Shown: in pieces, positions 2,539-48,864 of the stretch
Layout of the letters: every line of letters begins with the position of its first letter
How positions within the stretch are numbered: position 1 is the stretch's first letter
Source: a virus
Taxonomy: Duplodnaviria; Caudoviricetes
DNA: 50,473 bases
Strand: one strand, 5' to 3'
IMG/VR virus record: IMGVR_UViG_3300029823_000001
Location: 1-50,473 of that record
Notes under the pieces: generated by a model
Seen by the model: the letters and a program-made list of their open reading frames with translations, nothing else
The model's database searches: none
What the model was told of the DNA's origin: nothing
Made by a program: the position numbers and the translations under genes

Positions 2539-3770
2539 AACGGGGATTAGTAAGCAAAAGAAGCATAACGAGCGACGACCCTCGTTTGATTGAATACATG
2601 ACCTATATCGGGGATAATCTGAACGGGTCGGTAAGTGTGTCGAGCGGTGATTCAGCCATGAAGATAGCCGCCGTTTATAGGAGTATTTCAATTCTATCTG
2701 GAACGATTGCGTCTCTACCGTTGTATCCGAGACGAAAGACAGCAAAGGGTAATTTTGAAATAGACTACAGCAATCCATTGTACAACCTTTTGACGTGGAA
2801 AACATCGAACAGGTTAAATTCATACGAGACGCTGGAAAGTGCGGTCATTCAAACATTGATGTACGGGAATGCTTATCTGTTCCCAAAGATGAAGAAGTTC
2901 GACTATTCCGAACTGGTTCTTTTAGGGCCCGGTTCGGTGGTTTACGACGACCTTACGGATAGGTACTTCATTACCGACCCGAAAAACGGCGTTTCTGGGA
3001 TGTTCGATTCGTGGCAGATCATTCATTTTAGAAACAAGAACCTTGACGGCAGTAAAGTAGGTTTAAGTACAATCCAATACGCAGGGAGGATTCTGAACAT
3101 TTCAGCCAACGCAGACGAACAGACCTTGGCTAACATGAAGTCCGGGAACAAGCAAAAGGGATTCCTGACTGGAGGAGCATTAAGGGATGGAATGGGTGTT
3201 TACAAGGACGAACAGGTCGATATAGTCGCTAAAAGACTTGAAACGCAACTCGCAAACGGTGATTCAGTAATGAGGCTTCCCGGTGAATTGAACTGGCTGC
3301 CCTATTCTATTTCGCCCGCAGATGCGCAGATACTTGAAAACAGGGAGTTTTCGGTATTCGATGTTTGTCGGTTCTTTGGTGTTCACCCCGATAAGGTCTT
3401 TGTAAGGCAAAACTCGAATTATAAGGCAAGTGAGAATTCTCAAACTTCGTTCATGACCGATACGCTTCAACCTTTGTTAACGCAGATGGAAAAGGAATTG
3501 ACCACAAAGCTGATTCCTAAAAAGAATATCGGGATAAAAGAAAAGATAGAATTTGACAGGGTTGCGCTTTACCAGTTAGACCCGTCCGGCGCAGCTACTT
3601 ATTACAAACAAATGTTCGAGGTCGGCGGGTTAACTTCAGATGAGATTCGAGTAGCAACGAACAGGGAGCCAAAAGATGGTGGGGATGTTCTGTTTGTGAG
3701 TGCCAATGTTGCACCTATCAATTCGGCAAAGATTTACGGAGAGAAACGGGAAGAAAAAACTATTGAATGA
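2535..3770 (+). CDS. Portal protein, HK97 family
   Basis: AAVYRSISILSGTIASLPL, YGNAY, IIHFR, DAQILE, CRFFGVHP, LTSDEIR motifs. Confidence 0.95.
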   Translation: MKRGLVSKRSITSDDPRLIEYMTYIGDNLNGSVSVSSGDSAMKIAAVYRSISILSGTIASLPLYPRRKTAKGNFEIDYSNPLYNLLTWKTSNRLNSYETLESAVIQTLMYGNAYLFPKMKKFDYSELVLLGPGSVVYDDLTDRYFITDPKNGVSGMFDSWQIIHFRNKNLDGSKVGLSTIQYAGRILNISANADEQTLANMKSGNKQKGFLTGGALRDGMGVYKDEQVDIVAKRLETQLANGDSVMRLPGELNWLPYSISPADAQILENREFSVFDVCRFFGVHPDKVFVRQNSNYKASENSQTSFMTDTLQPLLTQMEKELTTKLIPKKNIGIKEKIEFDRVALYQLDPSGAATYYKQMFEVGGLTSDEIRVATNREPKDGGDVLFVSANVAPINSAKIYGEKREEKTIE

Positions 3771-5233
3771 TGAGCGTTCAGGCTGTTTTATCAAAAATAG
3801 AGGAATTGAGAGAGGAGGTTTCCAATATGGCACAATCCTCACGGATAGGGATAGCTATTTCCACTTGCAACCGTTACGATATTTTCAAAAGATGTTACGA
3901 CGAGGTTAAGAGGTTCGCACCACCCAATTCCGTTATAGTCGTTGTTGACGACGCAAGCGACAAACCGGTACCGGAAGCAACGTTCAGATTCAATCAGAAT
4001 GTCGGTATAGCGAGAGCGAAGAACAAATGCTTTGAGCTTCTTTACGATGAGGGTTGCGAACACTTCTTTCTGTTCGATGATGACTGTTGGCCGCAAAGGG
4101 AAGATTGGTATGTTCCCTATGTGGAAAGCAAAGAGCCTCACTTAAATTACATATTCGAGCAGTTCAAATCATTGAACGCGCCGAAGCTGAACGACACGAT
4201 TGTGATCTATAAAGATAGCAAGATAGTAGCCTATTCCCATGCGAGGGGCTGCATGTGTTACTATAAGAGGGTTTGTCTGGAAAAGGTCGGGGGGATGGAT
4301 ACCGTATTCGGAAAATGGGGTTATGAGCATCCGCAATTAAGTAACAGGATTTACAACGCAGGATTGACTTCTTTCAGGTATATGGACGTTCCCAACAGCG
4401 ACAAGCTGATCTACTCTTTGGACGAGCACAACGGAAACACCAGTTCAACCGTTATCGGAGCGGAAAGGCAGAAATGGATTGCGAGAAATTCAAAGATTTA
4501 CGAGGACACCAAAGACCAGTTTTACTATGTTCCGTTCAAAGAGAAAAGGAATATCGTTTTAACCTGTCTTTTCTCAAACCTTGACGATCCGCAAAGACCC
4601 AAACCGATGCCGGCCGATAAATCCATTTTAAAGCCTTTAATCGATTCGATGAAAGGTCAGGACATCGTTGTCCTTTCGGACGGAATAGAGGCAGGAAAAG
4701 AGGGCAGCGCGGAGTTTATAAAGGTCGAGACGTTTGTAAGGAATGTGTACTTTCAAAGATGGGTGAGTTATTACCGATACCTTTTAGAACACAGGGATTC
4801 GATTGGAAAAGTATTCATAACCGACGGTTCGGACGTGGTGATGTTGAGAAGTCCGTTTGAAAAGATGAAAGACGGGATTCTTTATGTTGGAGACGAGCCG
4901 AACATGACGGGCTGCGAGTGGATGGTGAAAAACCACCCTCATAAAAATTTGCAGACTTTTATCATAGGCAATACCGATGTTCTTCTGAACGCAGGATTGT
5001 GTGGCGGTTCGGTTGACATAGTGATTGAATTTCTTAATAAATTTCTTTCATTTTACTTTCAGTCCGTTACCGACACCCATTTTCACAAAACGCCCGGCTG
5101 CGGTGTGGATATGGGATTATTTAATTATATCGCACGTAAGCACTTCGAGGGGAGATTAGTTCACGGCACGCAGGTTAATACGGTTTTTAAGGCTGAAAAG
5201 CCGAATGATGTATCATGGTTTCAACACAAATAA
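3767..5233 (+). CDS. Glycosyltransferase: N-terminal GT2/GT-A domain plus a second GT-A-like domain
   Basis: IAISTCNR, VVVDDAS, GIARAKN, FLFDDD, WGYEH (GT2 signature); C-terminal FITDGSDV, LLNAG...GG and DMGLFNY resemble a GT-A fold. Confidence 0.85.
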   Translation: MMSVQAVLSKIEELREEVSNMAQSSRIGIAISTCNRYDIFKRCYDEVKRFAPPNSVIVVVDDASDKPVPEATFRFNQNVGIARAKNKCFELLYDEGCEHFFLFDDDCWPQREDWYVPYVESKEPHLNYIFEQFKSLNAPKLNDTIVIYKDSKIVAYSHARGCMCYYKRVCLEKVGGMDTVFGKWGYEHPQLSNRIYNAGLTSFRYMDVPNSDKLIYSLDEHNGNTSSTVIGAERQKWIARNSKIYEDTKDQFYYVPFKEKRNIVLTCLFSNLDDPQRPKPMPADKSILKPLIDSMKGQDIVVLSDGIEAGKEGSAEFIKVETFVRNVYFQRWVSYYRYLLEHRDSIGKVFITDGSDVVMLRSPFEKMKDGILYVGDEPNMTGCEWMVKNHPHKNLQTFIIGNTDVLLNAGLCGGSVDIVIEFLNKFLSFYFQSVTDTHFHKTPGCGVDMGLFNYIARKHFEGRLVHGTQVNTVFKAEKPNDVSWFQHK

Positions 5234-16675: not shown

Positions 16676-17316
16676 AGATAAGAATTGGAAACGACTTTAT
16701 GTTTGCATGGGAGATTGAAAGAAACGGACTTCCCGAATATCTTTCATCCGTGCTCGAAAAACACTTGTATTTGTCCGTACTGGGCAAGAGAGTTGAACTG
16801 TTAGAGGGTGTCGATTATGACATAACTGGAAACGTTGTCAGAATAGAGGTAACTCCGACAATTGCAAATATCATAGGCTCCTACAATCTTGAATTAACCT
16901 ATACTCTTTCCGATGTAACCCTGTCGGATGCCGACAGGAGATGTGCGGTGGATGTGGATGCGTTTCAAATCGTTGCGAGAACTGCACAGGCTGACGACCC
17001 TTCTGAGTTTACCATTACTTCCGACATGGCTATAGCCTTTCGGGGAAAATCGGCTTATGAGGTATGGCTTGAAACACACGCTGGAACAGTTGCCGATTAC
17101 GAGGCATGGATTAAACAGCCTGCGTTAGAAGCGGCGGGAGTAGCAAACGGTGCAGCAGAATTGGCAAATTCAAAAGCTGGATTAGCTAATACGGCAGCCC
17201 AAACGGCAAATACCGCGGCTGGATTTGCAGATGCTGCACGCTTATCAATACAGGCAGATTTAGCATTAAAATTAGAATCAGTAACCTATTCGGAAACAGA
17301 ATATAACGAAATATAA
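16672..17316 (+). CDS. Tail fibre-associated protein
   Basis: MKIRIGNDF, GKSAYEVW...GT..DY..W motif, Ala-rich coil. Confidence 0.6.
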   Translation: MKIRIGNDFMFAWEIERNGLPEYLSSVLEKHLYLSVLGKRVELLEGVDYDITGNVVRIEVTPTIANIIGSYNLELTYTLSDVTLSDADRRCAVDVDAFQIVARTAQADDPSEFTITSDMAIAFRGKSAYEVWLETHAGTVADYEAWIKQPALEAAGVANGAAELANSKAGLANTAAQTANTAAGFADAARLSIQADLALKLESVTYSETEYNEI

Positions 17317-17317
17317 T

Positions 17318-17857
17318 ATGGCAAAGATAGAAAAACTTAAAAAGGATGTTGAGGGTGTAGCTACGACGGTTTACCCCGTAACAATTCCGCAAGCAGTAAT
17401 CGACCCTACAAGCGGAAAGAGTGCAAGAGTAGAACTTGATGAAAAAGCCAAACATGGCTACGAATCGAATCCCAAGACGCTGAAAGAGGTGGACAACGAA
17501 AAGGCGGCTCATGGATACGGAGCAGAACCGCAGAAAACGCTGAAACAAGTGGATGACGAAGTGATTCAATTAGCGGGCGATGTGAAAGATACTACCGAAA
17601 AAGCGGGAGCGGCATCATTGGCGGAATTGAACGCAAGGTTGCTTGCACTCGAAAAGATTGTAAGCAGCACCCTTCGCTCCAAGATTGAAGTAACCAGAGA
17701 ATTTAACGTTTGGGGAAAAACAAACCTCATTCTTTACGGTGCAGGGGCGAATACAAAAGCACCTGATTTTATAGGTCAAAAATATATCGACACAACAGGC
17801 GGTAACGTATATGTTGCTGTCGGAACAACAAGTGCAGGAAACTGGAAATTAGTTTAA
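17318..17857 (+). CDS. Tail fibre-associated protein with internal tandem repeat
   Basis: VYPVTIPQAV; duplicated EKA.HGY...KTLK.VD; C-terminal APDFIGQKYIDT...W. Confidence 0.6.
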   Translation: MAKIEKLKKDVEGVATTVYPVTIPQAVIDPTSGKSARVELDEKAKHGYESNPKTLKEVDNEKAAHGYGAEPQKTLKQVDDEVIQLAGDVKDTTEKAGAASLAELNARLLALEKIVSSTLRSKIEVTREFNVWGKTNLILYGAGANTKAPDFIGQKYIDTTGGNVYVAVGTTSAGNWKLV

Positions 17858-17859
17858 TT

Positions 17860-19095
17860 ATGGAATACATAAAAAATTACGAAAATCAGGCAGCTTATAA
17901 TGCCGACACCACAAGACCTCAGGACAGTTCAGTCGTTAGTAATGTCGAAACACTAGGAGTGAAATACGATGGCAAGAATGTTTTCGTGCCGAAGGAGAGT
18001 GCAGACGTGGGAGATATTGTTGTTGTTGACAACGGTGAGTTGAGGTACATCAAGCTCGACACCTACGATGCAGCACTAACAACCGTAGAGCCTATTGGGG
18101 TAGTGTATTACCGCACCAACGGGGAGATAAGGGTTATTTATAAAGCATCTCTCGGCAATGCACAATGGGCAGCACCATTCAGGGCTAAGGTGGAGGGATT
18201 CGACCTTGTTAATGGCGGTACTCACACTATCACGGTTAACTCATCGGCATATCCTTTCACCTTTTCAGCGGGAGCATCGTTGGCAGATGTGTCCGCAGCT
18301 ATTCTCGCAGCACTTCCAACTGATGTAGGGTGGAGCGTTGAAACGAAGGTCGGATATGTGGTGATACAGCGCAGCTGGTACACCCCAGCAATCAGCACGT
18401 TTACCGTGAGCGGATTAACAGCAACAATCTTAAATGCTGACTATCAGGCGCAATATACAGGATTCCTGACGGCATACCTGAATTTTATGCGAGAAAACGG
18501 CTACTCTCACGCTTATGCAGGGGCTAACTACGAGCGATTCCTACAATACTACGAGGTGAGCGGTAGTGATGCGACAGGTGTTGACCCCTCTGTTTATAGT
18601 GTTGTTAAGAGAAGCGTATTTAACGAGGTTGACAATCCATTATTGGTGTCAGCTTATGGCACATACGAAAATTATATCCTTGACAACTTAGTCAAGATGC
18701 CATATAGCAAGGATGCGATTGCCGATAATGACGGTAAATCAAACACCGAAAAACTCATATCCTACACATACATAGACGATGATGGCGTGGAAAAGCCCTC
18801 TTTCCCTGCGGCACATGCAGCTTCGAGTGTATCAGCGGGGAATGTGAATTGGTGGCTGCCGAGCGCAGAAGAGATGGCGATATTAGTTCGTGGAGTGAAG
18901 CTGAATTATTCTGACCCTCTAAGCAGGGCACTGTACAAGATAGGGGATAGGTTCGCCATTACGTCCACACATTGGACTTCATCGGAGCGCCTTTCCAACA
19001 CCAGTTGGGTTTACAACGGCGGCGGCGGCAACATGACCAGCAGCTACAAGGGCAATTCGACCGTGGTTCGTGCCGTCTCAGCTTTTTACTTTTAA
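17860..19095 (+). CDS. DGR target protein with C-terminal C-type-lectin-like (DUF1566-like) domain; likely receptor-binding
   Basis: DGKSNT, WWLPSAEE, HWTSSE...SW...VRAVSAF; the 3' end carries the VR. Confidence 0.9.
   Translation: MEYIKNYENQAAYNADTTRPQDSSVVSNVETLGVKYDGKNVFVPKESADVGDIVVVDNGELRYIKLDTYDAALTTVEPIGVVYYRTNGEIRVIYKASLGNAQWAAPFRAKVEGFDLVNGGTHTITVNSSAYPFTFSAGASLADVSAAILAALPTDVGWSVETKVGYVVIQRSWYTPAISTFTVSGLTATILNADYQAQYTGFLTAYLNFMRENGYSHAYAGANYERFLQYYEVSGSDATGVDPSVYSVVKRSVFNEVDNPLLVSAYGTYENYILDNLVKMPYSKDAIADNDGKSNTEKLISYTYIDDDGVEKPSFPAAHAASSVSAGNVNWWLPSAEEMAILVRGVKLNYSDPLSRALYKIGDRFAITSTHWTSSERLSNTSWVYNGGGGNMTSSYKGNSTVVRAVSAFYF
18984..19088 (+). repeat. DGR variable repeat (VR) with IMH
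   Basis: The 98-bp core 18984-19081 aligns without gaps to 19557-19654 with 18 mismatches, all at codon positions 1-2. Confidence 0.93.
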
Positions 19096-19105
19096 CTTTT
19101 AACTT

Positions 19106-19118
19106 GCGGCGAAGCCGC
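19106..19118 (+). promoter_or_regulatory. DGR target-recognition hairpin
   Basis: GCGGC-GAA-GCCGC immediately downstream of the VR/stop; no equivalent after the TR. Confidence 0.75.
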
Positions 19119-19128
19119 GCTTAGCATT

Positions 19129-19473
19129 ATGTTTAGGAATTTGCAGATATACAAAGATTCGTACCAACTCTCAAAAGCGATACACAGGGCATTGCCAAAG
19201 ATGTCTCGCTTCGATAGGTTTTCGTTAGGCTCTATGCTATTCGAGAAGTCATTGATGTTGGTCGATGGAGTTATAAAAGCAAATTCGCTAAGAGGAAGAG
19301 AGCGAGTGGATGTGCTTGAGAATCTTATAGGCACGTTCGGGGTTGTTGAGGCACTGATTAGGATTGCATCGGATGAAAAAATGTGGGATCAAAAAACCCT
19401 TGCTCCGATGTTTCTACTAATTAGCGATATATCAAAGCAAGCAAACGCTTGGAAGCGTTCTACCAGAATATGA
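19129..19473 (+). CDS. avd: DGR accessory variability determinant (Avd-like four-helix bundle)
   Basis: 114 aa, basic, LQIYKDSYQL...RFSLG...ISKQANAW; lies between target and TR. Confidence 0.88.
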   Translation: MFRNLQIYKDSYQLSKAIHRALPKMSRFDRFSLGSMLFEKSLMLVDGVIKANSLRGRERVDVLENLIGTFGVVEALIRIASDEKMWDQKTLAPMFLLISDISKQANAWKRSTRI

Positions 19474-19556
19474 TAACAATGGAGTGTCATAGAGTGTATT
19501 CTAATAAAAAGGGCTGCCCGCTATCATTTATAGCTATTTCACAAGGGGTAGTAAGA

Positions 19557-19661
19557 GGAGCGCTATTCCAACTCCAGTTGGGTTTACTACGGCAGCAACG
19601 GCGGCATGAACTACTTCAACAAGCACTATTCGACCGTGGTTCGTGCCGTCTCAGAATTTTA
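19557..19661 (+). ncRNA. DGR template repeat (TR), atypically depleted of AAC/AAT codons
   Basis: Canonical position between avd and RT; repeat of the VR; see finding on the mismatch spectrum. Confidence 0.8.
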
Positions 19662-19662
19662 T

Positions 19663-20778
19663 ATGAATATGATTAACGTAGAAGATATATTTGAAGCCTA
19701 TTACGCTTGCTTAAAAAATAAGCGTGGCACTGAAAGCGCAGTAAAGTTTGAGATGAACTACATCAATAACTGCATTTCGCTTTTCAGAGACCTTTCCGAC
19801 CGTACATATAAGCCAAGCGCATCCATCGCTTTTATCGTCACCAAACCGAGGAAGAGGGAGATATTTGCTGCGAATTTCAGGGATAGGGTTCTCCATCACC
19901 TTGTAGATTTGAAGCTACGTCCGCTCATTGAAAAAGAATTGATTGATAGGACATTCAACAATAGGGTGGGCAAGGGTACATCTGGGTGTGTGGCGCAGCT
20001 AAAAAATGACCTTGAGGATTGCACCCCGACCGATTGGATATGCAAGATGGACATGAAGGGGTTTTTTATGTCGTTAAGCAAAAGCCTTATCATCTCTATG
20101 GTTCACAAATTTATTGATGACAAGTATATCGGGGAGGACAAGGATGATTTGAAGTGGCTCGTAGAGGTGCTTATTTCAGACTGCCCAGAGAAGCATTGCA
20201 ACCTTCGGTCACCTGTTGAGATGTGGGCAGACCTTAATAAAAATAAGAGCCTGTTCACGGTCGATGATGATTTGGGCATTCCAATCGGGAATTTAATATC
20301 CCAGCTTTTTGCCAACTTCTACCTGAATGAATTTGACCATTATGTGCATGGGGAATTAGGCTTTAGCAGGTACGGCAGATATGTAGATGATTTCTACATC
20401 ATTTGGGAGAAAGAGAAGATATTGAATGCAATCCCCCTGATTAGGGAGAAGCTAAAAGAGGTTGGAGTCACCCTTCATCCATACAAGTTTTATTTGCAGC
20501 ACGCAAGTAAGGGGTGTGAGATGGTGGGTGCTGTTGTCAAGAAAAACAGAATCTATGTCCACAACAGGACGGTAAATAATGCCTTTAGGAAGATAGAGAG
20601 AATGACGTCGCATAAGAGGAGGGCGACAGACAAAGACCTTGCCTCTATTAATTCTTACTTGGGCTTTATGGCGATCTATAATTCGTACAATATAAGAAGG
20701 CGGCTTGCTATCAAAGCCATGAGGCTTGACGGTTTTACCGCACCGAATAGCTACAAGAAAATGAAACTTTCTAAATAA
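19663..20778 (+). CDS. DGR reverse transcriptase (start may be 19606, 19663 or 19669)
   Basis: KPRKREIFAANFRDRVLHH, KMDMKGFF, GIPIGNLISQLFANFYL (DGR SQ motif), RYVDD. Confidence 0.96.
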   Translation: MNMINVEDIFEAYYACLKNKRGTESAVKFEMNYINNCISLFRDLSDRTYKPSASIAFIVTKPRKREIFAANFRDRVLHHLVDLKLRPLIEKELIDRTFNNRVGKGTSGCVAQLKNDLEDCTPTDWICKMDMKGFFMSLSKSLIISMVHKFIDDKYIGEDKDDLKWLVEVLISDCPEKHCNLRSPVEMWADLNKNKSLFTVDDDLGIPIGNLISQLFANFYLNEFDHYVHGELGFSRYGRYVDDFYIIWEKEKILNAIPLIREKLKEVGVTLHPYKFYLQHASKGCEMVGAVVKKNRIYVHNRTVNNAFRKIERMTSHKRRATDKDLASINSYLGFMAIYNSYNIRRRLAIKAMRLDGFTAPNSYKKMKLSK

Positions 20779-20785
20779 TACAACT

Positions 20786-21013
20786 ATGAAAGAGATAAAC
20801 AAAAAGTACGCAGAAATAAATGATTTAAAAGCTTTATTAGCAAGCACCGACTATCAAGTAATTAAAGAAGCCGAGGGTGGATACTCGGTGCCACAGGAGA
20901 TAATCGACGAGCGTCAAGATGCAAGGGCTCGAATAAATATACTTGAAGCAGAAATTGAGCAGCTGGAATCTGAGGAGAATACAGCAGTAGTGGTTGAGGA
21001 ATGGCTCAATTAG
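20786..21013 (+). CDS. Small tail-associated hypothetical protein
   Basis: LASTDYQVIK..E...RQ.AR..IN motif common beside phage fibre genes. Confidence 0.6.
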   Translation: MKEINKKYAEINDLKALLASTDYQVIKEAEGGYSVPQEIIDERQDARARINILEAEIEQLESEENTAVVVEEWLN

Positions 21014-21046
21014 GCGACGATTTGAACATTTTGAACGAAAATTGAC

Positions 21047-23866
21047 ATGACAGTAAGGGCGTTTGACATAACATTCAAGGACGAGGCGGTTCAGACCGTG
21101 AACCTGAAAGCCGGAACGTGGACTTTCCATGCCTTCGTGAACGCTTTAACCTATTCAATCGGGTTGAAGGATTCAACTGGCGTATGGCACAACTACGACC
21201 TTTCAGACCAGACTGGAGCTGGATGGTACGACGTTCAGGAGACGATAACGACCGACTTTGATGCGGTTGAAATATCTCTCCTGAACAACGTAGGAACCGC
21301 CCAGGTGTTGTTCCCTATGTTCGAGAAAGGCTCGAGAAAGAGCGTCAAGAGACCGCACGAAAAGGATATAGAGGAGGCGGCGATCATCAAGTCGGCAAGC
21401 TGGGAAATACACACTTCATCTCCAGTTATCTACAAGGACGCACCCGATTTGACCACCGACGGAGCACACACGCCCGTAACGGTCACGGGAAGGCACTGGG
21501 TAGGTTCTGTAATGACGGAAGAAGGATTCCTCACCGTGACGGCAAACGACGAAACAGAGGCTGCAAATGCGTCTCCATCACCCGTTACAATCGCTCCTTT
21601 AAACAGCGCAGACAAGCACACCTACACGATAAGACTCTACGTCGATGCGAACAAGACCGAACTGCTGGACTACGAGACGATTCCGGTGGTTTTCAAGGGT
21701 GCGAAGGGGATAAGTGCGATAAGGCTGCACATAAATAACCCCGTAGACGTTCTTCCGGCCGATTCGGACGGGAACGTTCTGTCATTCACAGGAACTGGAA
21801 CAAGCATTCACGTATTCGAGGGAGCTGTTGAGTTGGATTACGACGGTATAGGAACGGCAAACGGAAAATTCAAGGTAACTGCAGTGCCTTCTAATATCAC
21901 GATGGGTGCAATAACCGACGGTGGGAATATCTGCGTCGTGGCAGATGCAACGGCAATGGCCGCGGACAAGGCCTCGATAGTCTACACGGTTACCGGAAAG
22001 ACCTTGGACGGGTTCGACTTTACCGTTTCTGGAGAGCAGAACTTCACCAAGACCAAGATGGGTCAGGACGGAGAGGGTATACTGTCGGTCATAGACTACT
22101 ACGGATTGAGCACGAGCGCAAGCGTTCTTCCTTCCACGTGGTACACGACCGTACCTTCAAAGGCTGCAAACGAATTTCTGTGGAGTTACGAGAGGATAAT
22201 CTACACCGACACGACCTACGACGAAACGCAGAAGAGGATAATTCAAGGCAAGGATGCGAAGGGCATAATCTCCATCTCCAACGCTTACGGGTATTCGACC
22301 GACGATGTGACGCCGCCGAGCGTGTGGTACACCCTTTCAAGCCTTCCGGCAAAGCAGCCCGGTCAGGTTCTGTGGGTCAGGGAGGATATAGAATATTCTG
22401 ACGGATCATCCAACGCCACGATAGGATATCCGGTCAGGGACGGCGAACCGGGATTGCCCGGCGAGGACGGGGACGGAATAACATCGACTACAATCGAATA
22501 TGCCAAGGATGCAAGCGGCACGATACCGCCGAATAGCGGATGGAGCACTTCACTTCCATCACCCACGTTGGGTTGGTATCTGTGGACAAGGACAACTACT
22601 ACATACAGGGTGGCAGCCCCGACTGTCGCCTATTCGGTGTCGAGATACGCGGAGGACGGACTGCCGGGAGATCCTGGGACTGGCGTTGACGGGCTTAGAA
22701 CCGAATACTACCTATCCACCTCGAGCACGACACAGACGGGTGGAACGTGGCAGACGACCGTACCCGTATGGGTAGCCGGAACGTACATCTGGGAGAGGAT
22801 CGTCACGGTGATGAGCGACCTCACGGAGATATTCGGAAGCCCGTATCTCTCGAGGACATGGGAGACGATAAACCAGCTGCAGGCAGACATCATTGAAGAG
22901 CAGGCAAAGACGCAATTCCAGACAACGATCGATGGCGGGCTTATCTACACTGCTTTGATGAAGCTGTTCAATCCTTCAAGCGGATCGGAGACGGCGGGAA
23001 TAAGCGGTAATAATGAAACCGCAACGAATCCGGCTTTTTATGCGGGCGGCACGCATGGGGAAGCATTATCCGGAACGGCGAAGGCCATAATAAGGCATGA
23101 TGGAACGGTGAAGTTTACCAGTGCCGAAATAACAGGAACGGTCAACGCCATATCCGGCACATTTAACAATGTGATATTCCAGAGCGGATATATTGGAGGG
23201 TTCAGGGTGTCTGGTACGGGTCTTACCAATGGTCCTGACTTTAACAATGACGCTTATATAATTTTCAGGAATGACGAAAATAAGACATTTGCCGGAATCG
23301 GGGGAAACATACTTCCTTCTTCTTCCGGATTGACCGCTGTTGCAAGATTTGAAAACGGCGCAACAAACAACTTCTACGGGTCGACTAATTACGGGGTTAT
23401 AATCGAGGCATCCGGAGCGTCAAGGAATATCGGCATCAGCCTTGTTGGCGACATAGTGATGAAGGGAGCCCTCGTGTCGATAGAGCCGACCTTCCAGTCA
23501 ATGGGATATACGGATTCCATAATATTGAACATAAGCAAGTATAGAAGATTTTTATTCACCCCGGGCACCTCGCAATATCTTAGCGTCGATCTTCCATCCA
23601 GTTCGCAGATAGTTAACGCATTCGGCTCCTACAAGCTTCCCTCCTACTGGAATATAGAAATAGAGATAGAGGTTGCGTGGAACGCTTCTGGGTCAATAGC
23701 GCTAAGGGGGTCTTCTGGTAGCATATTCGTTAATAACAATGGCGACGTCGTGAATTATCAGGATACATACGCTTACGGGATTATAAAAATGGATAAGGGA
23801 GACGCGGTCACCGTCCGGTATAATTCATATCACGGCAGGTGGCAATTAATCAATCACAGTTACTGA
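21047..23866 (+). CDS. Tail fibre / host-specificity protein
   Basis: 939 aa, Thr/Ser/Gly-rich; four G.DG..I...Y...P..W...P....LW.R repeats; ITGTVNAISG..GGF beta-helix-like region. Confidence 0.8.
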   Translation: MTVRAFDITFKDEAVQTVNLKAGTWTFHAFVNALTYSIGLKDSTGVWHNYDLSDQTGAGWYDVQETITTDFDAVEISLLNNVGTAQVLFPMFEKGSRKSVKRPHEKDIEEAAIIKSASWEIHTSSPVIYKDAPDLTTDGAHTPVTVTGRHWVGSVMTEEGFLTVTANDETEAANASPSPVTIAPLNSADKHTYTIRLYVDANKTELLDYETIPVVFKGAKGISAIRLHINNPVDVLPADSDGNVLSFTGTGTSIHVFEGAVELDYDGIGTANGKFKVTAVPSNITMGAITDGGNICVVADATAMAADKASIVYTVTGKTLDGFDFTVSGEQNFTKTKMGQDGEGILSVIDYYGLSTSASVLPSTWYTTVPSKAANEFLWSYERIIYTDTTYDETQKRIIQGKDAKGIISISNAYGYSTDDVTPPSVWYTLSSLPAKQPGQVLWVREDIEYSDGSSNATIGYPVRDGEPGLPGEDGDGITSTTIEYAKDASGTIPPNSGWSTSLPSPTLGWYLWTRTTTTYRVAAPTVAYSVSRYAEDGLPGDPGTGVDGLRTEYYLSTSSTTQTGGTWQTTVPVWVAGTYIWERIVTVMSDLTEIFGSPYLSRTWETINQLQADIIEEQAKTQFQTTIDGGLIYTALMKLFNPSSGSETAGISGNNETATNPAFYAGGTHGEALSGTAKAIIRHDGTVKFTSAEITGTVNAISGTFNNVIFQSGYIGGFRVSGTGLTNGPDFNNDAYIIFRNDENKTFAGIGGNILPSSSGLTAVARFENGATNNFYGSTNYGVIIEASGASRNIGISLVGDIVMKGALVSIEPTFQSMGYTDSIILNISKYRRFLFTPGTSQYLSVDLPSSSQIVNAFGSYKLPSYWNIEIEIEVAWNASGSIALRGSSGSIFVNNNGDVVNYQDTYAYGIIKMDKGDAVTVRYNSYHGRWQLINHSY

Positions 23867-31427: not shown

Positions 31428-32324
31428 ATGACACTGATTAAGAAAGCGAACGAGATTGAAAGACCGAAAAACGTCAGGATGATGATTTACGGACAAAGTG
31501 GAACCGGTAAGACAACATTCTCATTGTCAAGTCCAGACACATTATTATTGGACTTCGACAACGGGGTTCACAGGCTGGAGAATCAGCACAGGACGGACAC
31601 AGTACAAGTTAGAACATTTCAGGAGGTTTTAAACGTGCTGGATGAGGATTTGAGCGGGTATAAAACAGTAGTTGTCGATACGGTAGGAAAGATGCTGGAC
31701 TACATTATAGTTCACATATGTGGAAAGAAACAGCCACGTATTCAGGACTGGGGAAAGATAAACATGACCTTTTCTGACTTTAACAGGACATTATACCACA
31801 GCGGCAAAAATGTGGTTTATGTGGCTCACAGGGACGTAAGGAAAGAGGGAGAAGAAAACGTATTTGTTCCCGCGTTGAGAGAAAAGTCATATAGTTCTAT
31901 CGTGGCTGATTTAGACCTTTTGGGGTACTTGGAAATGACCGACAAGGGAAGGACTTTAACTTTTAATCCTTCGACCCGAAACGACGGCAAAAACACCTGT
32001 CAGCTACCCAACCAGATATTAATTACAAATGTGGCTGGAAAGGAAAACACGGCATTGCAAGACCTTATTCTCAAGCCTTATGAGGATGTGTGTTTAAAAC
32101 AGTCTGAAACGGAAAAAGAATATCAAAAGGTAATGGACGAGCTCAAAGAGAACATTGACCTGATAACCGACGAATTGAGCGCAAACGATTTTGTAAACAG
32201 GATAGACAAGTTCAAACACGTGGGCAATTCAAAGGCTATGGCGGGAAACATGCTTTTGAAAAAGACAAACAGCCTTGGGCTTGTTTACAATAAGGAAACG
32301 AAGACTTATGAACATAAGGTATAG
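31428..32324 (+). CDS. Sak4-like AAA ATPase / recombinase
   Basis: IYGQSGTGKT, LLLDFDNG, VVVDT, YVAH; followed by exonuclease and SSB genes. Confidence 0.85.
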   Translation: MTLIKKANEIERPKNVRMMIYGQSGTGKTTFSLSSPDTLLLDFDNGVHRLENQHRTDTVQVRTFQEVLNVLDEDLSGYKTVVVDTVGKMLDYIIVHICGKKQPRIQDWGKINMTFSDFNRTLYHSGKNVVYVAHRDVRKEGEENVFVPALREKSYSSIVADLDLLGYLEMTDKGRTLTFNPSTRNDGKNTCQLPNQILITNVAGKENTALQDLILKPYEDVCLKQSETEKEYQKVMDELKENIDLITDELSANDFVNRIDKFKHVGNSKAMAGNMLLKKTNSLGLVYNKETKTYEHKV

Positions 32325-33069
32325 AATTTATCCGAGCCTTCTGGATTCATATACAAGCTACCTTTCGACAGAAGAGACCTATGACAAATACTGGGGAAAT
32401 TCTGACAACCCCTCAAAAACTTTAGAACAATTTGAAGAGGAGCAGTTCAACCAGTTCATCGACAAGATAAACAGGGTTCCGGTCAAATGGGAGGATTCGG
32501 AAAAGATGGACAGGGGAACAGCCTTTAATGAAATAGTGGACTGTATCATAAATCATTCAAAATCGGAGACGATGAACATTGTTTCCGACAACGGAAGAAT
32601 AATTGCGGACTTCAATAAGCGAACATTTTCCTTTCCAATAGATGTTTGCAAAGAGTTTGCCGACTATTTCAAAGGTGCTCAAAACCAGATAAGAGTTTCA
32701 GCAATACTTCCTACTCAATACGGTGATGTGGAGGTTTACGGTGTGATCGACGAGCTTATGCCGTTGTGCGTTCACGACATAAAGACGACTGGAAGTTACG
32801 AGGCGTGGAAGTATAAAAACTACGCCCAAAGACTTGTCTATCCTTATTGTCTGAATGAAAACGGCAACAAGGTGGACAGGTTTGAATTTAATGTGCTGGT
32901 GATAAAGGAAGGTAAGTTTGAAACAAGTTACGAATCACTAACCGAGTTTTACACTTATAATCACGATGAGGATTCTTTAATCCTGAAAGAAAGAGTAGAA
33001 GATTTGATTGAATTTTTAGAGAGTAATAGACATTTAATAACCAATAAAAAAATATTTGGAGAGATATGA
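32308..33069 (+). CDS. PD-(D/E)XK exonuclease-like protein
   Basis: DRGTAFN, YGVIDEL...HDIKTT...Q...Y. Confidence 0.75.
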   Translation: MNIRYRIYPSLLDSYTSYLSTEETYDKYWGNSDNPSKTLEQFEEEQFNQFIDKINRVPVKWEDSEKMDRGTAFNEIVDCIINHSKSETMNIVSDNGRIIADFNKRTFSFPIDVCKEFADYFKGAQNQIRVSAILPTQYGDVEVYGVIDELMPLCVHDIKTTGSYEAWKYKNYAQRLVYPYCLNENGNKVDRFEFNVLVIKEGKFETSYESLTEFYTYNHDEDSLILKERVEDLIEFLESNRHLITNKKIFGEI

Positions 33070-33503
33070 GTATCAACAAATGCACGATTTTGGGCAGAGT
33101 GGGCAAAGACCCCGAAATTAAACAGTTTGACGGAGGCAGCAAGGCATCCTTTTCAGTCGCCACAACGGAAAGAGGCTATACGACGAAAAACGGGGTATCC
33201 GTACCGGAAAAAACCGAGTGGCATAACATCGTATGTTGGAAAGGTCTGGCCACTATTGCGGAGCGGTTCGTGAAGAAAGGCGACTTAATCTACATCGAAG
33301 GCAAGATCACCACAAGAAGTTGGGAAAGCGACGGAAAGAAGCACTACATGACGGAGATCGTAGCGGACAATATCGAATTGCTGGGTAACAAATCTGAAAA
33401 GGTTGAAAAAGACCCGTTCGAGGAGCCGCCGATGGGGGAACCCGTTTACAGGGAGAATAAGTTTGACAAGGGTATTAATGCGGACGATTCTATGCCATTT
33501 TAA
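33066..33503 (+). CDS. ssb: Single-stranded DNA-binding protein
   Basis: GRVGKDPE, TEWHNIV, KKGDLIYIEGK, acidic DDSMPF tail. Confidence 0.96.
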   Translation: MSINKCTILGRVGKDPEIKQFDGGSKASFSVATTERGYTTKNGVSVPEKTEWHNIVCWKGLATIAERFVKKGDLIYIEGKITTRSWESDGKKHYMTEIVADNIELLGNKSEKVEKDPFEEPPMGEPVYRENKFDKGINADDSMPF

Positions 33504-33514
33504 AACAAAAGGAT

Positions 33515-34486
33515 ATGAGAATAAAATTTAACGATAAGATTTACCGATTGAAAGAGGTTGAATCGGGGGTTGACAGTTTGATGGAACTGGTGGAAGAGCA
33601 GAAATATAAGGACGGAGACTTTGTCTATGAAGATGGGCGCATAATGATAGTTAAGAGCTATCCGAACAACTATCACGCTAACGTATTGAATATGTATTCA
33701 GATAGCCCAGATTATGATGACACATACGGACTGGATTTTTCAGAACCGACATTCAGGTATGCAACAGATGAAGAGAAGCAGATACTGATCGATGCAATGA
33801 AGAAAGACGGCAAACGCTGGAATGCAGAGAAGATGGTTATTGAAGATATTTCAGTTTACAAGGATGGCGACTTCGTTGTGAATGATTCAAATTCAATTTT
33901 AATCTTTAAAGAGACTGATGGTGTTTGCATATTTGATCATGCTTATCTGCATGATAATGACGAACTCGTAATTGTTAAAGTTAAAAGTTACGATGGGATC
34001 AAACGCTATGCAACCACAGAAGAAAAACAACGAATGATTGAAGCACTTGCCGAACGAGATAAACGTTGGAATGCCGAGAAGAAGTGTGTCGAAGATATAC
34101 CGAAGCGTAAATTCAAAAATGGAGACAAGGTTACGCTCAAAAGTGGTTGCACAAGTAATCCAGGCCTAACCTATTATTCGCTATTTGACGAGTATATTGG
34201 AAAGGAATTAATAGTCATTGATTATACCGAAAGTGGAAATGTAAAATGCAATAACGGTCTTCGTTTTGCCGAGGACTGGCTCGAACCGTGGAGCGATGAG
34301 CCAAAAGTCGGGGATCGGGTAATCGCTTGGGATAATAGAAATACACCAATTATTGGAGTATTGGACAAGATTAATAAAGATGATAGTATATATCCATATC
34401 AGGTAGGTGGAATTAATTGGAACCACGCCGTCAAATGGGATGGAACAGTCGATCATCTCCAAAAAATCCGTTCCGGCAAAGTTTAA
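33515..34486 (+). CDS. Hypothetical protein with internal repeats
   Basis: Two copies of YKDGDFV...RYAT.EEKQ..I.A.....KRWNAEK...EDI and a third partial copy. Confidence 0.7.
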   Translation: MRIKFNDKIYRLKEVESGVDSLMELVEEQKYKDGDFVYEDGRIMIVKSYPNNYHANVLNMYSDSPDYDDTYGLDFSEPTFRYATDEEKQILIDAMKKDGKRWNAEKMVIEDISVYKDGDFVVNDSNSILIFKETDGVCIFDHAYLHDNDELVIVKVKSYDGIKRYATTEEKQRMIEALAERDKRWNAEKKCVEDIPKRKFKNGDKVTLKSGCTSNPGLTYYSLFDEYIGKELIVIDYTESGNVKCNNGLRFAEDWLEPWSDEPKVGDRVIAWDNRNTPIIGVLDKINKDDSIYPYQVGGINWNHAVKWDGTVDHLQKIRSGKV

Positions 34487-34536
34487 ACAGATAAGGTGAT
34501 GTTTTTAAACAGAGGGTAAGGGGTGGGCTAAAAGAT

Positions 34537-34971
34537 ATGATACTAAACTTGAACATCGAATTGGATCGGGAAAAATTTAAAACCCGATCCGATTTTTTAT
34601 TAGAGAAACGAAAGGTTGTTGAGCTGACGGAGAAGACGGGTAGGACACTCAATCAGAATTCCTATTTGCACCTTCTGTTGACAATACTTGCAATGGATAT
34701 AGGTGAAAGCGTGGAATATGTAAAGCAGTATATATTCAAGCGACACGTTAATACTGAATTATTCGTAAGAGAGAAGATCGACAGGATAATAGGGAAGGTT
34801 GAAATTTTGCGGTCAAGCGCAGACTTGACAAAAGAGGAAATGACTACCGCAATTGAAAGGTTTAAATTCTTCGCTAAAACAGAGCTTGGCATTTATTTGC
34901 CGGATGCCTTGAGCGAACATGACCAGTTGGAATTATTACGACAAATTGATAGGCAGAAAAACTACTTATGA
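34537..34971 (+). CDS. NinB-like protein
   Basis: RTLNQNSYLH, RSSADLTKEEM...IE, LGIYLP. Confidence 0.65.
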   Translation: MILNLNIELDREKFKTRSDFLLEKRKVVELTEKTGRTLNQNSYLHLLLTILAMDIGESVEYVKQYIFKRHVNTELFVREKIDRIIGKVEILRSSADLTKEEMTTAIERFKFFAKTELGIYLPDALSEHDQLELLRQIDRQKNYL

Positions 34972-35200
34972 CAGAAACAGCACTTGACACTCAGATAGGC
35001 GGCAACCATTATAAAACCTTCAAGATACAACCGATTGAGTTCATACATAAAAACAACTTATCATACATACAGGGCAATGTAATCAAATATGTATGCAGAT
35101 ACAGGGATAAGAACGGAATCGAAGATTTAAAAAAGCGAGACATTATATTGACATGCTAATTGAATTTGAAAATGAGCTACAAAAGGAAAGCAAAGGTTAA
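34968..35200 (+). CDS. DUF3310 (SaV-like) protein interrupted by a -1 frameshift at 35129-35135
   Basis: QIGGNHY, GNVIKYVCR...KNGIEDLKK; the conserved ARHYIDMLIE continues in the -1 frame. Confidence 0.75.
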
Positions 35201-35287
35201 GGACGACTTAAACAAGAACCCTGACAAGATAGACACGTCGATAGGAAAAATGTATCTGGAGCAGGGGAAAGTAAAATATTTGAAGAA

Positions 35288-35491
35288 ATGACACCCATCG
35301 AGGCGATAACAAAAATAATCGACGACAAGAAGGAGCGCAGAACATACCCGTTTTGCGCTCTTATTTCGTCTGTGAGGCCACTTTGTAATCTTTCCGATGC
35401 GGAGTTCACGAAAGAAATTGAACGGCTTAAAACGGCTGGAATCATAGTAGAAAGGCAAACGGTTAATTCAGTAAGTTATTATTTGGAGTAA
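35288..35491 (+). CDS. Small winged-helix-like hypothetical protein
   Basis: EIERLKTAGII...TVNS pattern. Confidence 0.5.
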   Translation: MTPIEAITKIIDDKKERRTYPFCALISSVRPLCNLSDAEFTKEIERLKTAGIIVERQTVNSVSYYLE

Positions 35492-35495
35492 AAAT

Positions 35496-36374
35496 ATGGA
35501 ATTTAAAAAATATCAACACGTTGAGCGGTTTGGAACGATTGAAACCGCAGGGATTGAAAACGGGATGTGTTACGTCTTTCCGAAGATTGACGGAACGAAC
35601 GCTTCTCTTTGGTGGGACGATGGACTAAAAGCCGGGAGCCGAAACAGGGAGCTTTCACTAAATTATGACAATGCCGGATTTATGGCGTGGGCTATCAACG
35701 AACCATCGTTTAGGGATCTGTTTCGGGAGTATCCCCAATTAAGACTGTACGGCGAATGGCTTGTGCCGCACACGTTAAATACTTACCACGAATGTGCCTG
35801 GCGAAACTTTTACGTTTTCGACGTGATGAGCGGAGATGAGTATTTGCACTACGACGATTATAGCAAAATATTGAGCACCCACGGAATAGAATACATTCCG
35901 CCGATTTGCAGGGTTGAAAATCCGACATACGAAAGACTTATATCGCAACTCGAAAAGAACGACTACCTGATTGAAGATGGCAAGGGAACGGGAGAGGGAA
36001 TTGTAATCAAGAATTACGATTACAGAAACAAATTCGGGCGAATTGTTTGGGCTAAAATCGTAGCAAATGAATTTAAGGCTAAACATCGTAAAAAGGATGT
36101 TGCGGAGATAAAAGAGGCTAAAATAATCGAACAGGAGATAGCCGAAAAGTTTATTACCAAATCTTTGGTTGAAAAGGAATTTGCAAAGATTAACGCCGAA
36201 GCGGGATGGAGCTCAAAGTTTATTCCAAGACTATTAAGCACAGTTTTCTATTGCCTTGTGAAAGAGGAAAGCTGGAATTTCATAAAGGAGTTCAAAAACC
36301 CTACAATTGATTTTAAACGACTTTCATTTTTCACGAATAACAGGATTAAGGAATTGATGCCTGAATTGTTTTGA
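35496..36374 (+). CDS. RNA ligase (Rnl2-like nucleotidyltransferase)
   Basis: Motif I PKIDGTN, GSRNR, LYGEW, FYVFDV, EGIVIK, WAKIV..EFK. Confidence 0.85.
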   Translation: MEFKKYQHVERFGTIETAGIENGMCYVFPKIDGTNASLWWDDGLKAGSRNRELSLNYDNAGFMAWAINEPSFRDLFREYPQLRLYGEWLVPHTLNTYHECAWRNFYVFDVMSGDEYLHYDDYSKILSTHGIEYIPPICRVENPTYERLISQLEKNDYLIEDGKGTGEGIVIKNYDYRNKFGRIVWAKIVANEFKAKHRKKDVAEIKEAKIIEQEIAEKFITKSLVEKEFAKINAEAGWSSKFIPRLLSTVFYCLVKEESWNFIKEFKNPTIDFKRLSFFTNNRIKELMPELF

Positions 36375-36375
36375 T

Positions 36376-36756
36376 ATGGAGAAGCTTGATAAAATTTTCA
36401 GCGAGTATGTGAGAATCCGTGATGCAGATGCAAACGGATATGTTCATTGTTACTGTTGCGGGTATCCTATACACTGGACTAACGCACAGGCGATGCACTT
36501 CATGAACAGGCGACATTTGGGAACGAGGTTCAACGAAGAAAACGTAAATGCAGGGTGCCCGCCGTGTAACATGTATCAGAACGGCAATCTGGAGGCTTAT
36601 GAGGCACATTTGATTCGTGAATACGGTGATAGCATCATCGAGAAACTAACGATGCTTAAAACGACAGTAACGAAGTTTGCGCCGTATGAGATTGAAGAGA
36701 TGACAAAGCATTACAAAATGGAAGTTAAACGGTTGAAAAAGGAGAAAGGGCTATGA
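36376..36756 (+). CDS. NinG/Rap-like recombination endonuclease
   Basis: LDKIFSEYVRIRD, CYCC, HF..R..TRFNEEN..GC..CN. Confidence 0.88.
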   Translation: MEKLDKIFSEYVRIRDADANGYVHCYCCGYPIHWTNAQAMHFMNRRHLGTRFNEENVNAGCPPCNMYQNGNLEAYEAHLIREYGDSIIEKLTMLKTTVTKFAPYEIEEMTKHYKMEVKRLKKEKGL

Positions 36757-37808
36757 CGAAAGCAAACTCTAAGCCGGCATGGAATAGAAAAGTTGACGAT
36801 GATGTTTTAGTGGAGTCTTACGTTAGGCTTCAAAATGTATGGAAAGTTGCAGAAGAGGTCGGACTGTGTGGGCAAACGGTTCATGCAAGGCTAACCAGAA
36901 TAGGTAAAATAAACAGGATGAACTATTGGACTGAAAAAGATGATGAATTTCTTTTAGCTAACTATGCTGAATACAGAGATGATTGGAGGTTGTCTGATTT
37001 ATCTAAAATAATGGGCAGGACGGAGCAGTTTATCTCAAGAAAAGCAGGGAGGCTTGGGCTTACGGATATACATACTTCTCCACCAAAAAGGGTTAGGGTT
37101 GTCCAGGGTGAAAAAAAGAGGAAGTGGTTAGAAAACAACGACCATCCAAGGGGGATGCTTGGCAAGAAACACACAGAGGAGACAAAAAATAAATACAGCG
37201 AAATGTCAAAAAAAAGATGGAAAGACCCATCCAGTTATTTAAACAGTGAAGAGTATAGACAAAAACAATCTGATACAATGAGCAAATTGCAGGCAAGCGG
37301 TAAGTTAAATAATAACTACTCAAGGGCGAAAAGCGGATGGTTTGTAATTGGGGGCAAGAAACATTTTTACAGGTCATCGTGGGAAGTTGATATTGCTTCT
37401 TATTATGAGTTTCTTAAAACAAAAAAAGAGATAAAAGAGTGGGAATACGAGGCGGATGTTTTTTGGTTCGACAAAATAAAGAGAGGAGTAAGGTCATATA
37501 AACCAGACTTTAAAATAACCAATAACGATGATTCTGTATATTACGTTGAGGTAAAAGGATGGATGGACGCAAAATCAAAAACAAAGATTAAAAGAATGGC
37601 CATATACTACCCTTCTGTAAAATTGGAAATTATAGATCAAAATAGATATTATGCAATAAGAAAAAATGCGTCAATTATTCCAGGTTGGGGCGCAATGGAT
37701 ATGGGTCTTAAAATAGAGGAGAAGAAATGTAAAATTGATGGGTGCGAAAACAAAAGTCACTGTAAAGATGTGTGTCGAAAGCATTACTATAAAATTTATA
37801 AAAAATAG
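36753..37808 (+). CDS. Putative homing endonuclease (HTH + NUMOD3 + PD-(D/E)XK + Cys/His finger)
   Basis: GMLGKKHTEETK (NUMOD3); YRSSWE...YKPDF...VEVKGW; C-terminal CKIDGC...C.KHY. Confidence 0.7.
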   Translation: MTKANSKPAWNRKVDDDVLVESYVRLQNVWKVAEEVGLCGQTVHARLTRIGKINRMNYWTEKDDEFLLANYAEYRDDWRLSDLSKIMGRTEQFISRKAGRLGLTDIHTSPPKRVRVVQGEKKRKWLENNDHPRGMLGKKHTEETKNKYSEMSKKRWKDPSSYLNSEEYRQKQSDTMSKLQASGKLNNNYSRAKSGWFVIGGKKHFYRSSWEVDIASYYEFLKTKKEIKEWEYEADVFWFDKIKRGVRSYKPDFKITNNDDSVYYVEVKGWMDAKSKTKIKRMAIYYPSVKLEIIDQNRYYAIRKNASIIPGWGAMDMGLKIEEKKCKIDGCENKSHCKDVCRKHYYKIYKK

Positions 37809-48715: not shown

Positions 48716-48864
48716 CATTACACACAACAAGGGATTTACGAATGTTTAAAATATAATAGTCATGACAGTAAAACAGGCAATAAATGTGCTGAAAAAGCAC
48801 AACAATTGGAGACGTGGAGGACATGTAACGGTAGAGGGGTTATTTGGAAATAAAAACAGAAAAT

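Follow-up and report, generated by a model that had tools for sequence, protein, structure and literature searches.

The DNA analysed here, hereafter the window, is an entire IMG/VR virus record (IMGVR_UViG_3300029823_000001) of 50,473 bases with a CheckV completeness of 100%, and it carries the terminase, portal, major head, tape-measure, tail-fibre-like, endolysin, helicase and recombination genes of a tailed phage. Its tail module contains a diversity-generating retroelement (DGR) composed, in this order, of a target gene ending in the variable repeat (VR), a T-rich spacer, a hairpin, avd, an 84-nt spacer, the template repeat (TR) and the reverse transcriptase (RT) gene. The present TR of this element is very probably a real derivative, mutagenised at its adenines, of the AAC-rich TR carried by its relatives. 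The parts of the cassette are the following:

17860-19095, plus strand: DGR target gene, encoding a tail-module protein of 411 aa whose variable C-terminus is putatively lectin-like (open reading frame, ORF; Pfam Lcl_C)
18984-19081, plus strand: VR (direct repeat and alignment with the TR)
19082-19105, plus strand: T-rich spacer after the VR, resembling an initiation of mutagenic homing (IMH) element and partially similar to the sequence that follows the TR (direct reading)
19106-19118, plus strand: 5-bp GC hairpin 3' of the VR (centroid structure, -6.0 kcal/mol)
19129-19473, plus strand: avd accessory gene, 114 aa (Pfam bAvd, PHROG 3206)
19557-19654, plus strand: TR, eroded (alignment with the VR and with the TR of relatives)
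19663-20778, plus strand: DGR RT, 371 aa counted from 19663 (Pfam RVT_1, PHROG 1423)

The gene context given by the original prediction, which had been made from the window alone, holds for the target gene, for avd and for the RT up to 20778. The target gene is flanked by the tape-measure gene and the tail-fibre-like gene, and its stop codon follows the end of the VR by 14 nt. The C-terminus of its product is a weak match to Pfam Lcl_C (E = 6.3e-6; 26.9 bits, under the cut-off of 34.9), and the 74 homologues of the gene each have their own distinct VR, many of them with a precomputed PF07603 assignment. Avd is recognised by PHROG 3206 ('Avd protein of DGR', E = 2.3e-14) and by Pfam bAvd (E = 2.2e-9; 38.2 bits, just below the 40-bit cut-off), and the RT by PHROG 1423 (E = 2.1e-81) and Pfam RVT_1 (E = 3.6e-13; 50.2 bits, over the cut-off of 29.6). 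The RT has an intact YVDD and contains the sequence IGNLISQ, which we take to be a hallmark of DGR RTs. An ATG within the TR, at 19606, opens its reading frame, and its conserved body begins at 19663.

VR and TR align without gaps over 98 nt with 18 mismatches. Eight of these have A in the TR, where the VR reads G (five), T (two) or C (one); seven have A in the VR only, the TR reading T (five) or G (two); and three have no A in either copy (VR/TR: C/T, G/T and G/C). In the frame of the target gene, 11 mismatches fall on codon position 1, seven on position 2 and none on position 3, and the scaffold codons as well as the 3' block ending in ...GTTCGTGCCGTCTCAG are identical in both repeats. The gapless alignment thus reproduces the tally from which the original prediction had started, together with the confinement of the mismatches to codon positions 1 and 2 and the identical scaffold. 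The two repeats form the sole long direct repeat in 17000-22500 (105 nt, 81%, spacing 573), with E = 6.4e-24 against the whole record, and a 16-mer occurs exactly twice in the window when 0.2 occurrences are expected by chance. The whole 50,473-base record contains no third copy, which confirms that an AAC-rich ancestral template is absent from the window, as had been noted.

Taken by itself, this alignment could mean that the RT also mutates non-adenine bases, 10 of the 18 mismatches lying at non-A positions of the present TR. Non-A-to-N differences were surveyed by Wu et al. (2018; PMC5758913; like the other papers given here by accession or DOI, cited from the accessible part of its text): 86 of 372 DGRs have at least one, with a maximum of 11, compared with 10 in the window. 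The answer comes from related contigs. By a pattern scan and protein-guided scans we recovered three independent TR-containing contigs, L003/L008 in IMG/VR and the metagenome contigs L004 and L005, whose cassette DNA is 81-88% identical to that of the window. They have one common AAC-rich TR, from which L004 departs by a single difference at the second base. Compared with this pristine TR, the window TR has 14 substitutions, all at ancestral adenines (36 A in 98 nt; hypergeometric P = 1.2e-7), and the window VR has 15, again all at ancestral adenines, i.e. 29 of 29 changes for the two repeats combined. The adenine bias that is missing when the VR is compared with the present TR (8 of 18 differences at TR adenines) is complete against the TR of the relatives (15/15). 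As a control, 12 of the 14 VR/TR mismatches in L003/L008 lie at TR adenines. Mutagenesis of non-adenine bases, listed among the explanations of the original prediction, is excluded at this locus by these counts for all practical purposes.

This AAC-rich sequence, still present in the relatives, is the ancestral TR. The comparison with the TRs of related phages, which had been proposed at the outset, thus bears out the idea that VR and TR each arose from an AAC-rich ancestor by A-to-N changes, independently of one another. The eroded TR has lost 14 of the 36 ancestral adenines and kept 22, the changes spanning 71 nt (19564-19634). Its flanks have hardly changed: relative to L005, none of the 146 nt downstream differs and 2 of the 84 nt upstream do, compared with 14 of 98 within the TR, and at most one of the 28 adenines in the upstream 84-nt spacer is changed. 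Contigs of close relatives in two further runs, X3 and X4, read A at 19582, 19588, 19595 and 19603, i.e. at no fewer than 4 of the 14 changed TR sites. The invariance expected of a TR is therefore broken here by 14 A-to-N changes, and a second eroded TR, that of the RT protein record P0132, is described below.

The other scans added little. The metagenome_contigs scan returned four loci only, among them L006, whose TR falls outside the search pattern, and L007, which has no TR. The alignment-based scan of viral_contigs gave nothing beyond the contig already known, and there was no match to the RT protein alone in viral_contigs or, by blastn with 17860-20778, in the 'phages' collection. The genome_contigs scan gave no match, and hence no host or prophage.

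Several features of the VRs of this clade were observed along the way. The VR of L003/L008 differs from its own TR at two non-adenine positions, TGG to TGC, with loss of a conserved W, and a third-position C to T. In L005, comparison of the VR (676-781) with the TR (1258-1355) shows two extra codons (6 nt) inserted into the AAC run that follows ATG in the VR, and one non-A change, TCG to TTG. Of the 74 target homologues, 57 match the pattern, and in 7 of these 57 the VR is one to three codons shorter or one codon longer, so that VR length is variable within the clade. At VR codon 9 (19009-19011), where the TR codon is ATT in L003-L005, 9 of 56 VR alleles encode R, D, N or A, which are unreachable from ATT via adenine changes alone; some lineages probably have AAT at TR codon 9, i.e. 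another TR polymorphism at an adenine position.

The eroded TR might be a product of assembly, VR-variant reads having been placed at the TR, as was also considered in the original prediction. The data are of the metagenome type, and a 20-nt exact 3' block is common to VR and TR. However, the first changed base (19564) lies inside the repeat only 7 nt from the TR-only flank, so that there is no k-mer path from this flank into a VR variant. Moreover, Logan contigs, which come from a different assembler, have 0 differences from 18300-20300 in two runs, X1 (contig of 7,374 nt, depth 48.7) and X2 (50,133 nt, depth 55.2); both runs are possibly the source of the record, their agreement testing the assembler and not the reads, and the data of all 24 listed runs consist of contigs only, in which the TR and VR alleles are read as consensus. 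The exact 390-aa ORF running through the TR is on record from at least four sources, NCBI, JGI/IMG, Logan and ENA (three contigs), and P0132, from another assembly, has the same kind of TR. An assembly or consensus artefact is thus very unlikely.

The identical VR and eroded TR (0 differences over 2 kb) come from a fermentation metagenome of 2014 and a data set of 2018. The latter holds only 2.84 Mb of contigs, is labelled with a single organism and may be one source with the 2014 data; if the two runs are independent, the VR is static in this lineage.

A pristine TR could also be supplied in trans by a co-resident related phage, the local TR being a drifted and dispensable relic. Similar habitats commonly harbour related phages whose TR is pristine; the stretch, or part of it, is contained in 20 listed runs (12 studies), and X3 and X4 read A at the four sites given above. 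Against this, X1 and X2, the two runs with this genotype, each have one contig matching 18300-20300 at 85% likeness, a count to be read with the reservation that contigs cannot show absence, and the adenine-only change of the local TR would be left unexplained. No second TR-bearing contig being found in X1 or X2, this explanation, likewise put forward originally, is unsupported and seems quite improbable.

Judged from their substitutions, the two repeats look like independent draws from one template. They were hit at 7 sites in common, compared with 6.2 expected, and read the same base at 4 of these 7 (P = 0.17); neither value is significant, and the common derived bases give no support to a two-step model. 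At seven sites an A of the present VR stands opposite a T or G of the TR; the VR was therefore written from an older template, before the TR changed. From these VR-only adenines and the other mismatches it also follows that neither repeat was copied from the other in its present form: copying in either direction is ruled out by the 18-site alignment.

TR and RT ORF share one reading frame (19606-19662 in the window), so that among the relatives (P0001-P0170) gene callers mostly start the RT within the TR, and the RT ORFs of more distant relatives, e.g. P0087-P0102, span the entire TR. RT protein records are in this way a handy read-out of the TR sequence, the TR-encoded extension being a predicted translation only.

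The last 10 TR codons are visible as an N-terminal extension in 48 distinct RT ORF sequences, which are not independent lineages. A close clade, at least 78% identical to the window RT, accounts for 36 of the 48, the window ORF included, and the other 12 belong to a more distant clade. In the close clade, the TR-encoded start is the pristine MNNNNKNNSN in 29 of 36 ORFs (P0001 among them) and an NNNN variant in two; three have one N replaced (single changes in P0002, P0006 and P0012), and two, the window ORF and P0132, are heavily changed. The window ORF starts with MNYFNKHYST, five of the seven N being replaced. P0132, which is known as a protein only and with ten TR codons visible, starts with MHYYAKYYSC, so that all seven visible N codons are replaced, mostly by residues other than those of the window. 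Both have close relatives with a pristine TR: the window RT is 98% identical to P0001, and P0132, itself a 96%-identical relative from the same 90% cluster and from another Logan contig, has a pristine-TR nearest RT (96.5%). As far as these translations tell, TR erosion recurs in the clade, P0132 having a different eroded TR. In the distant clade, the P0022 cluster (at least 90% identity) has four different TR peptides among the six members showing one.

These comparisons bear on whether ordinary point mutation, with selection for adenine loss in an idle DGR or in one for which a narrower repertoire is favoured, could have eroded the TR without any reverse transcription into it. A theory preprint, in which the TR changes by standard mutation alone, regards stable environments as favouring the spontaneous mutational loss of TR adenines (10.64898/2026.02.18.706561). 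The single N changes in P0002, P0006 and P0012 would agree with such a course, and so would the same VR and TR in X1 and X2, suiting an idle element if the runs are independent. On the other hand, 14 substitutions in 71 nt, all at A (P = 1.2e-7), contrast with almost unchanged flanks (0 of 146 nt, 2 of 84 nt), and with an RT 98% identical to that of pristine-TR relatives a local rate far over background would be needed. P0132 has, in addition, been changed independently at 7 of 7 visible N codons. The RT keeps its YVDD, and the position of its one odd residue is highly variable across the family. Overall, we regard point mutation with selection as improbable.

The residue in question is a W (20404-20406, residue 248 from 19663) directly after YVDDFYII, where 15 of 16 aligned close relatives have G. 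Across 139 homologues this position is G, S, D, H, T or others, P0132 having G, and the W is probably tolerated. On this ground the W is uninformative as to an RT defect being the cause or a sign of decay. Residue 190 is N, and D in close relatives (ADLDKNK). To judge from the 22 adenines left in the TR and the YVDD of the RT, there is no sign of a dead element.

The DGR is otherwise an ordinary phage element and resembles that of phage BPP-1 (mtd-VR/IMH/hairpin, avd, TR/IMH*, brt) in the order of target gene with 3' VR, avd, TR and RT, in a GC-rich 3' block common to VR and TR after which the sequences diverge, in a GC hairpin found after the VR only, and in adenine-specific mutagenesis that affects the first two positions of AAC-rich codons. 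By analogy with BPP-1, the T-rich spacer 19082-19105, which is the same in L003 and L005, would act as IMH. The folding energy of the hairpin at 19106-19118 is unexceptional (z = 0.56), its stem has a compensatory change on both sides in L005, and no hairpin was found in the stretch after the TR, which was folded for comparison. The elements that, on the BPP-1 model, would serve target recognition, the IMH-like spacer and the hairpin, are thus present after the VR and not after the TR, the sequences beyond the common block diverging. Unlike the TR of BPP-1, that of the window itself has 14 A-to-N changes. Reportedly, Doulatov and co-workers showed in 2004 that swapping the IMH into the BPP-1 TR turns the TR into a recipient. 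Such a swap does not explain the event in the window, because the TR flank is unchanged compared with pristine relatives.

The best explanation of the locus is that an otherwise ordinary phage DGR had its TR overwritten by an adenine-mutagenised copy of itself. As to the route, we favour mutagenised cDNA of the DGR itself being written into the TR locus over conversion of the TR by a VR allele, and give it an even chance of being what happened; both routes, which the original prediction had placed side by side, still stand, the first now being preferred. In the proposed course, cDNA would be made from TR RNA with random bases opposite adenines, and would be incorporated at the TR locus rather than at the VR 573 nt upstream, which has the same orientation. 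It would probably get there by annealing to single-stranded DNA at the replication fork. Two genes of the phage might conceivably help the cDNA to anneal:

31428-32324, plus strand: Sak4-like single-strand annealing protein (PHROG 124, E = 5.7e-53)
33066-33503, plus strand: phage single-strand DNA-binding protein, SSB (PHROG 44, E = 5.8e-38)

With 22 adenines left, the element could still diversify the VR, although with a shifted and narrower repertoire.

What is seen in the window is the outcome, an adenine-specific tract with multiple sites in the TR, and the presence of the Sak4-like and SSB genes. Homing of cDNA onto its own template may well account for this outcome, though we would not put it beyond an evenly balanced judgement: one genome is enough, the adenine-specific multi-site tract would be limited to the TR, and the old VR would be left in place. 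A donor VR allele, by contrast, would have to come from another genome, because the present VR cannot have been the donor of the TR, and cDNA needs no second genome.

Precedents come from engineered systems. In recombineering-coupled DGRs, the element's own TR is overwritten at rates like those of the target (10.1101/2025.03.24.644984), and an engineered E. coli DGR is described as 'continuously erasing adenine from TR' (10.64898/2026.07.21.739853). As in these systems (DGRec and the E. coli DGR), the TR of the window would have been overwritten by A-mutagenised cDNA, with several adenines hit at once and a progressive loss, and an annealing protein is at hand, CspRecT in the engineered DGRs and the Sak4-like protein in the phage. 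The engineered DGRs, as described, rely on synthetic plasmids, an over-expressed annealing protein and disabled mismatch repair, and work without natural IMH/hairpin targeting; the window, unlike them, is the genome of a natural phage, with the eroded allele as its fixed consensus. For the reconstituted BPP-1 DGR, more editing is reported when the cDNA-complementary strand is the lagging-strand template, together with residual activity without the hairpin, and the authors hypothesise that cDNA homes into a lagging-strand single-stranded gap, direct tests being inconclusive (PMC12875486). Natural self-mutagenesis of a TR was not found in the full-text literature searched (supplements and subscription-only papers apart), which has it for engineered systems only.

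Several points weigh against homing of cDNA onto the TR. One fixed eroded allele is seen, no event having been observed and no ongoing ratchet being visible, and the part given to Sak4 and SSB is pure inference. The consensus nature of the contigs, the possible common source of X1 and X2 and the record of P0132 as a protein alone count on the same side. All five adenines in scaffold codons (AGT, TAC, ATG and AAG) are spared (P = 0.056), and the residues encoded by the TR agree more closely than pooled draws with the preferences that 56 natural VR alleles show at each position (P about 0.05), a hint only, since the test has low power and real alleles and pooled draws have widely overlapping distributions. 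TR codon 9 is GTT, as in the VRs of the window and of L005. Scaffold sparing, the fit to VR preferences and the GTT codon would all suit a VR allele as donor, or later selection on the TR. Finally, the cDNA of BPP-1 is described as extending to the end of avd (PMC12875486); a cDNA of that length should also have mutated spacer adenines, of which at most one in 28 is changed.

In a conversion, a VR allele from a sibling or co-infecting genome would have been copied into the TR via homologous or annealing-type recombination. The eroded TR indeed resembles a functional VR allele: besides the spared scaffold and the GTT at codon 9, its residues lie in the top 5% of pooled draws and above 80% of the 56 real alleles. 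The changed tract 19564-19634 also lies exactly inside the VR-homologous part, with the upstream spacer practically untouched; the phage encodes its own recombination module, and the DGRec preprint (10.1101/2025.03.24.644984) mentions, in its accessible text, RT-independent homologous recombination between TR and VR. Yet the present VR is not the donor, given its 18 mismatches to the TR, at 10 of which the TR has a non-A base, and a second genome is required. Only 7 nt of VR/TR identity precede the first change and the flanks are unrelated, leaving scant homology for recombination. Scaffold sparing is expected equally if selection removes TRs that break the scaffold, and both statistical hints are marginal. 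Conversion is on balance unlikely, though a serious possibility. The mechanism thus lies between homing of cDNA onto the TR and conversion by a VR allele, the natural self-mutated template itself being well supported.

A wider proposal, which we consider doubtful, is that self-rewriting is a regular and heritable mode of template evolution in phage DGRs. If mutagenised cDNA, or a VR allele that had proved successful, were occasionally written back into the TR and selection followed, the future repertoire would be re-centred and narrowed in one step, amounting to template learning and not to slow point mutation of an otherwise invariant TR. The hints for it are the recurrence in a close relative, the sparing of the scaffold (P = 0.056) and the fit to VR preferences (P about 0.05). 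If true, it would explain many of the 'non-A-to-N' DGRs of the survey.

A natural TR bearing the mutational signature of its own element indicates that the one-way rule from TR to VR is leaky, and the second case, P0132, agrees. For BPP-1, transfer is described as one-way, with a TR that 'remains unchanged throughout the process' (PMC3240598). DGRs are defined there by an invariant TR, which is also built into models of their evolution (10.64898/2026.02.18.706561), and the window challenges both: a template is evidently able to take many steps in a single jump. Wu et al. attribute non-A-to-N differences to atypical RT incorporation, integration errors or independent mutation (PMC5758913). The mismatches of the window, unlike these causes, were traced to a changed TR by comparison with relatives, and a changed TR is a concrete candidate explanation for other DGRs with many such mismatches. 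Such loci may be missed or misinterpreted by pipelines that require the differences between TR and VR to be biased towards adenines. Several TR alleles in one species or lineage are known for the Treponema denticola DGRs (PMC4891356). These are lineage variants (81% identity, or one position) and not the outcome of adenine-specific rewriting, and the accessible text of that study draws no link to the element's own mutagenesis. For engineering, TR erosion, a nuisance in recombineering-coupled DGRs (10.64898/2026.07.21.739853), has a natural counterpart, and natural protective features (IMH*, hairpin) may merit copying.

Elsewhere in the window, the recombination module (31428-37808) contains, besides the Sak4-like and SSB genes, a PHROG 35319 gene and genes for NinB/Orf, an RNA-ligase-like protein, NinG/Rap and a Holliday-junction resolvase. 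The window has 77 listed ORFs, and among the 40 scanned there is no integrase. A gene between the portal and head genes (3767-5233) matches PHROG 1579, labelled glycosyltransferase (E = 1.6e-162), and the right end carries a PAPS-reductase-like gene (46721-47596) and a ParB-like nuclease or partition gene (48844-49710).

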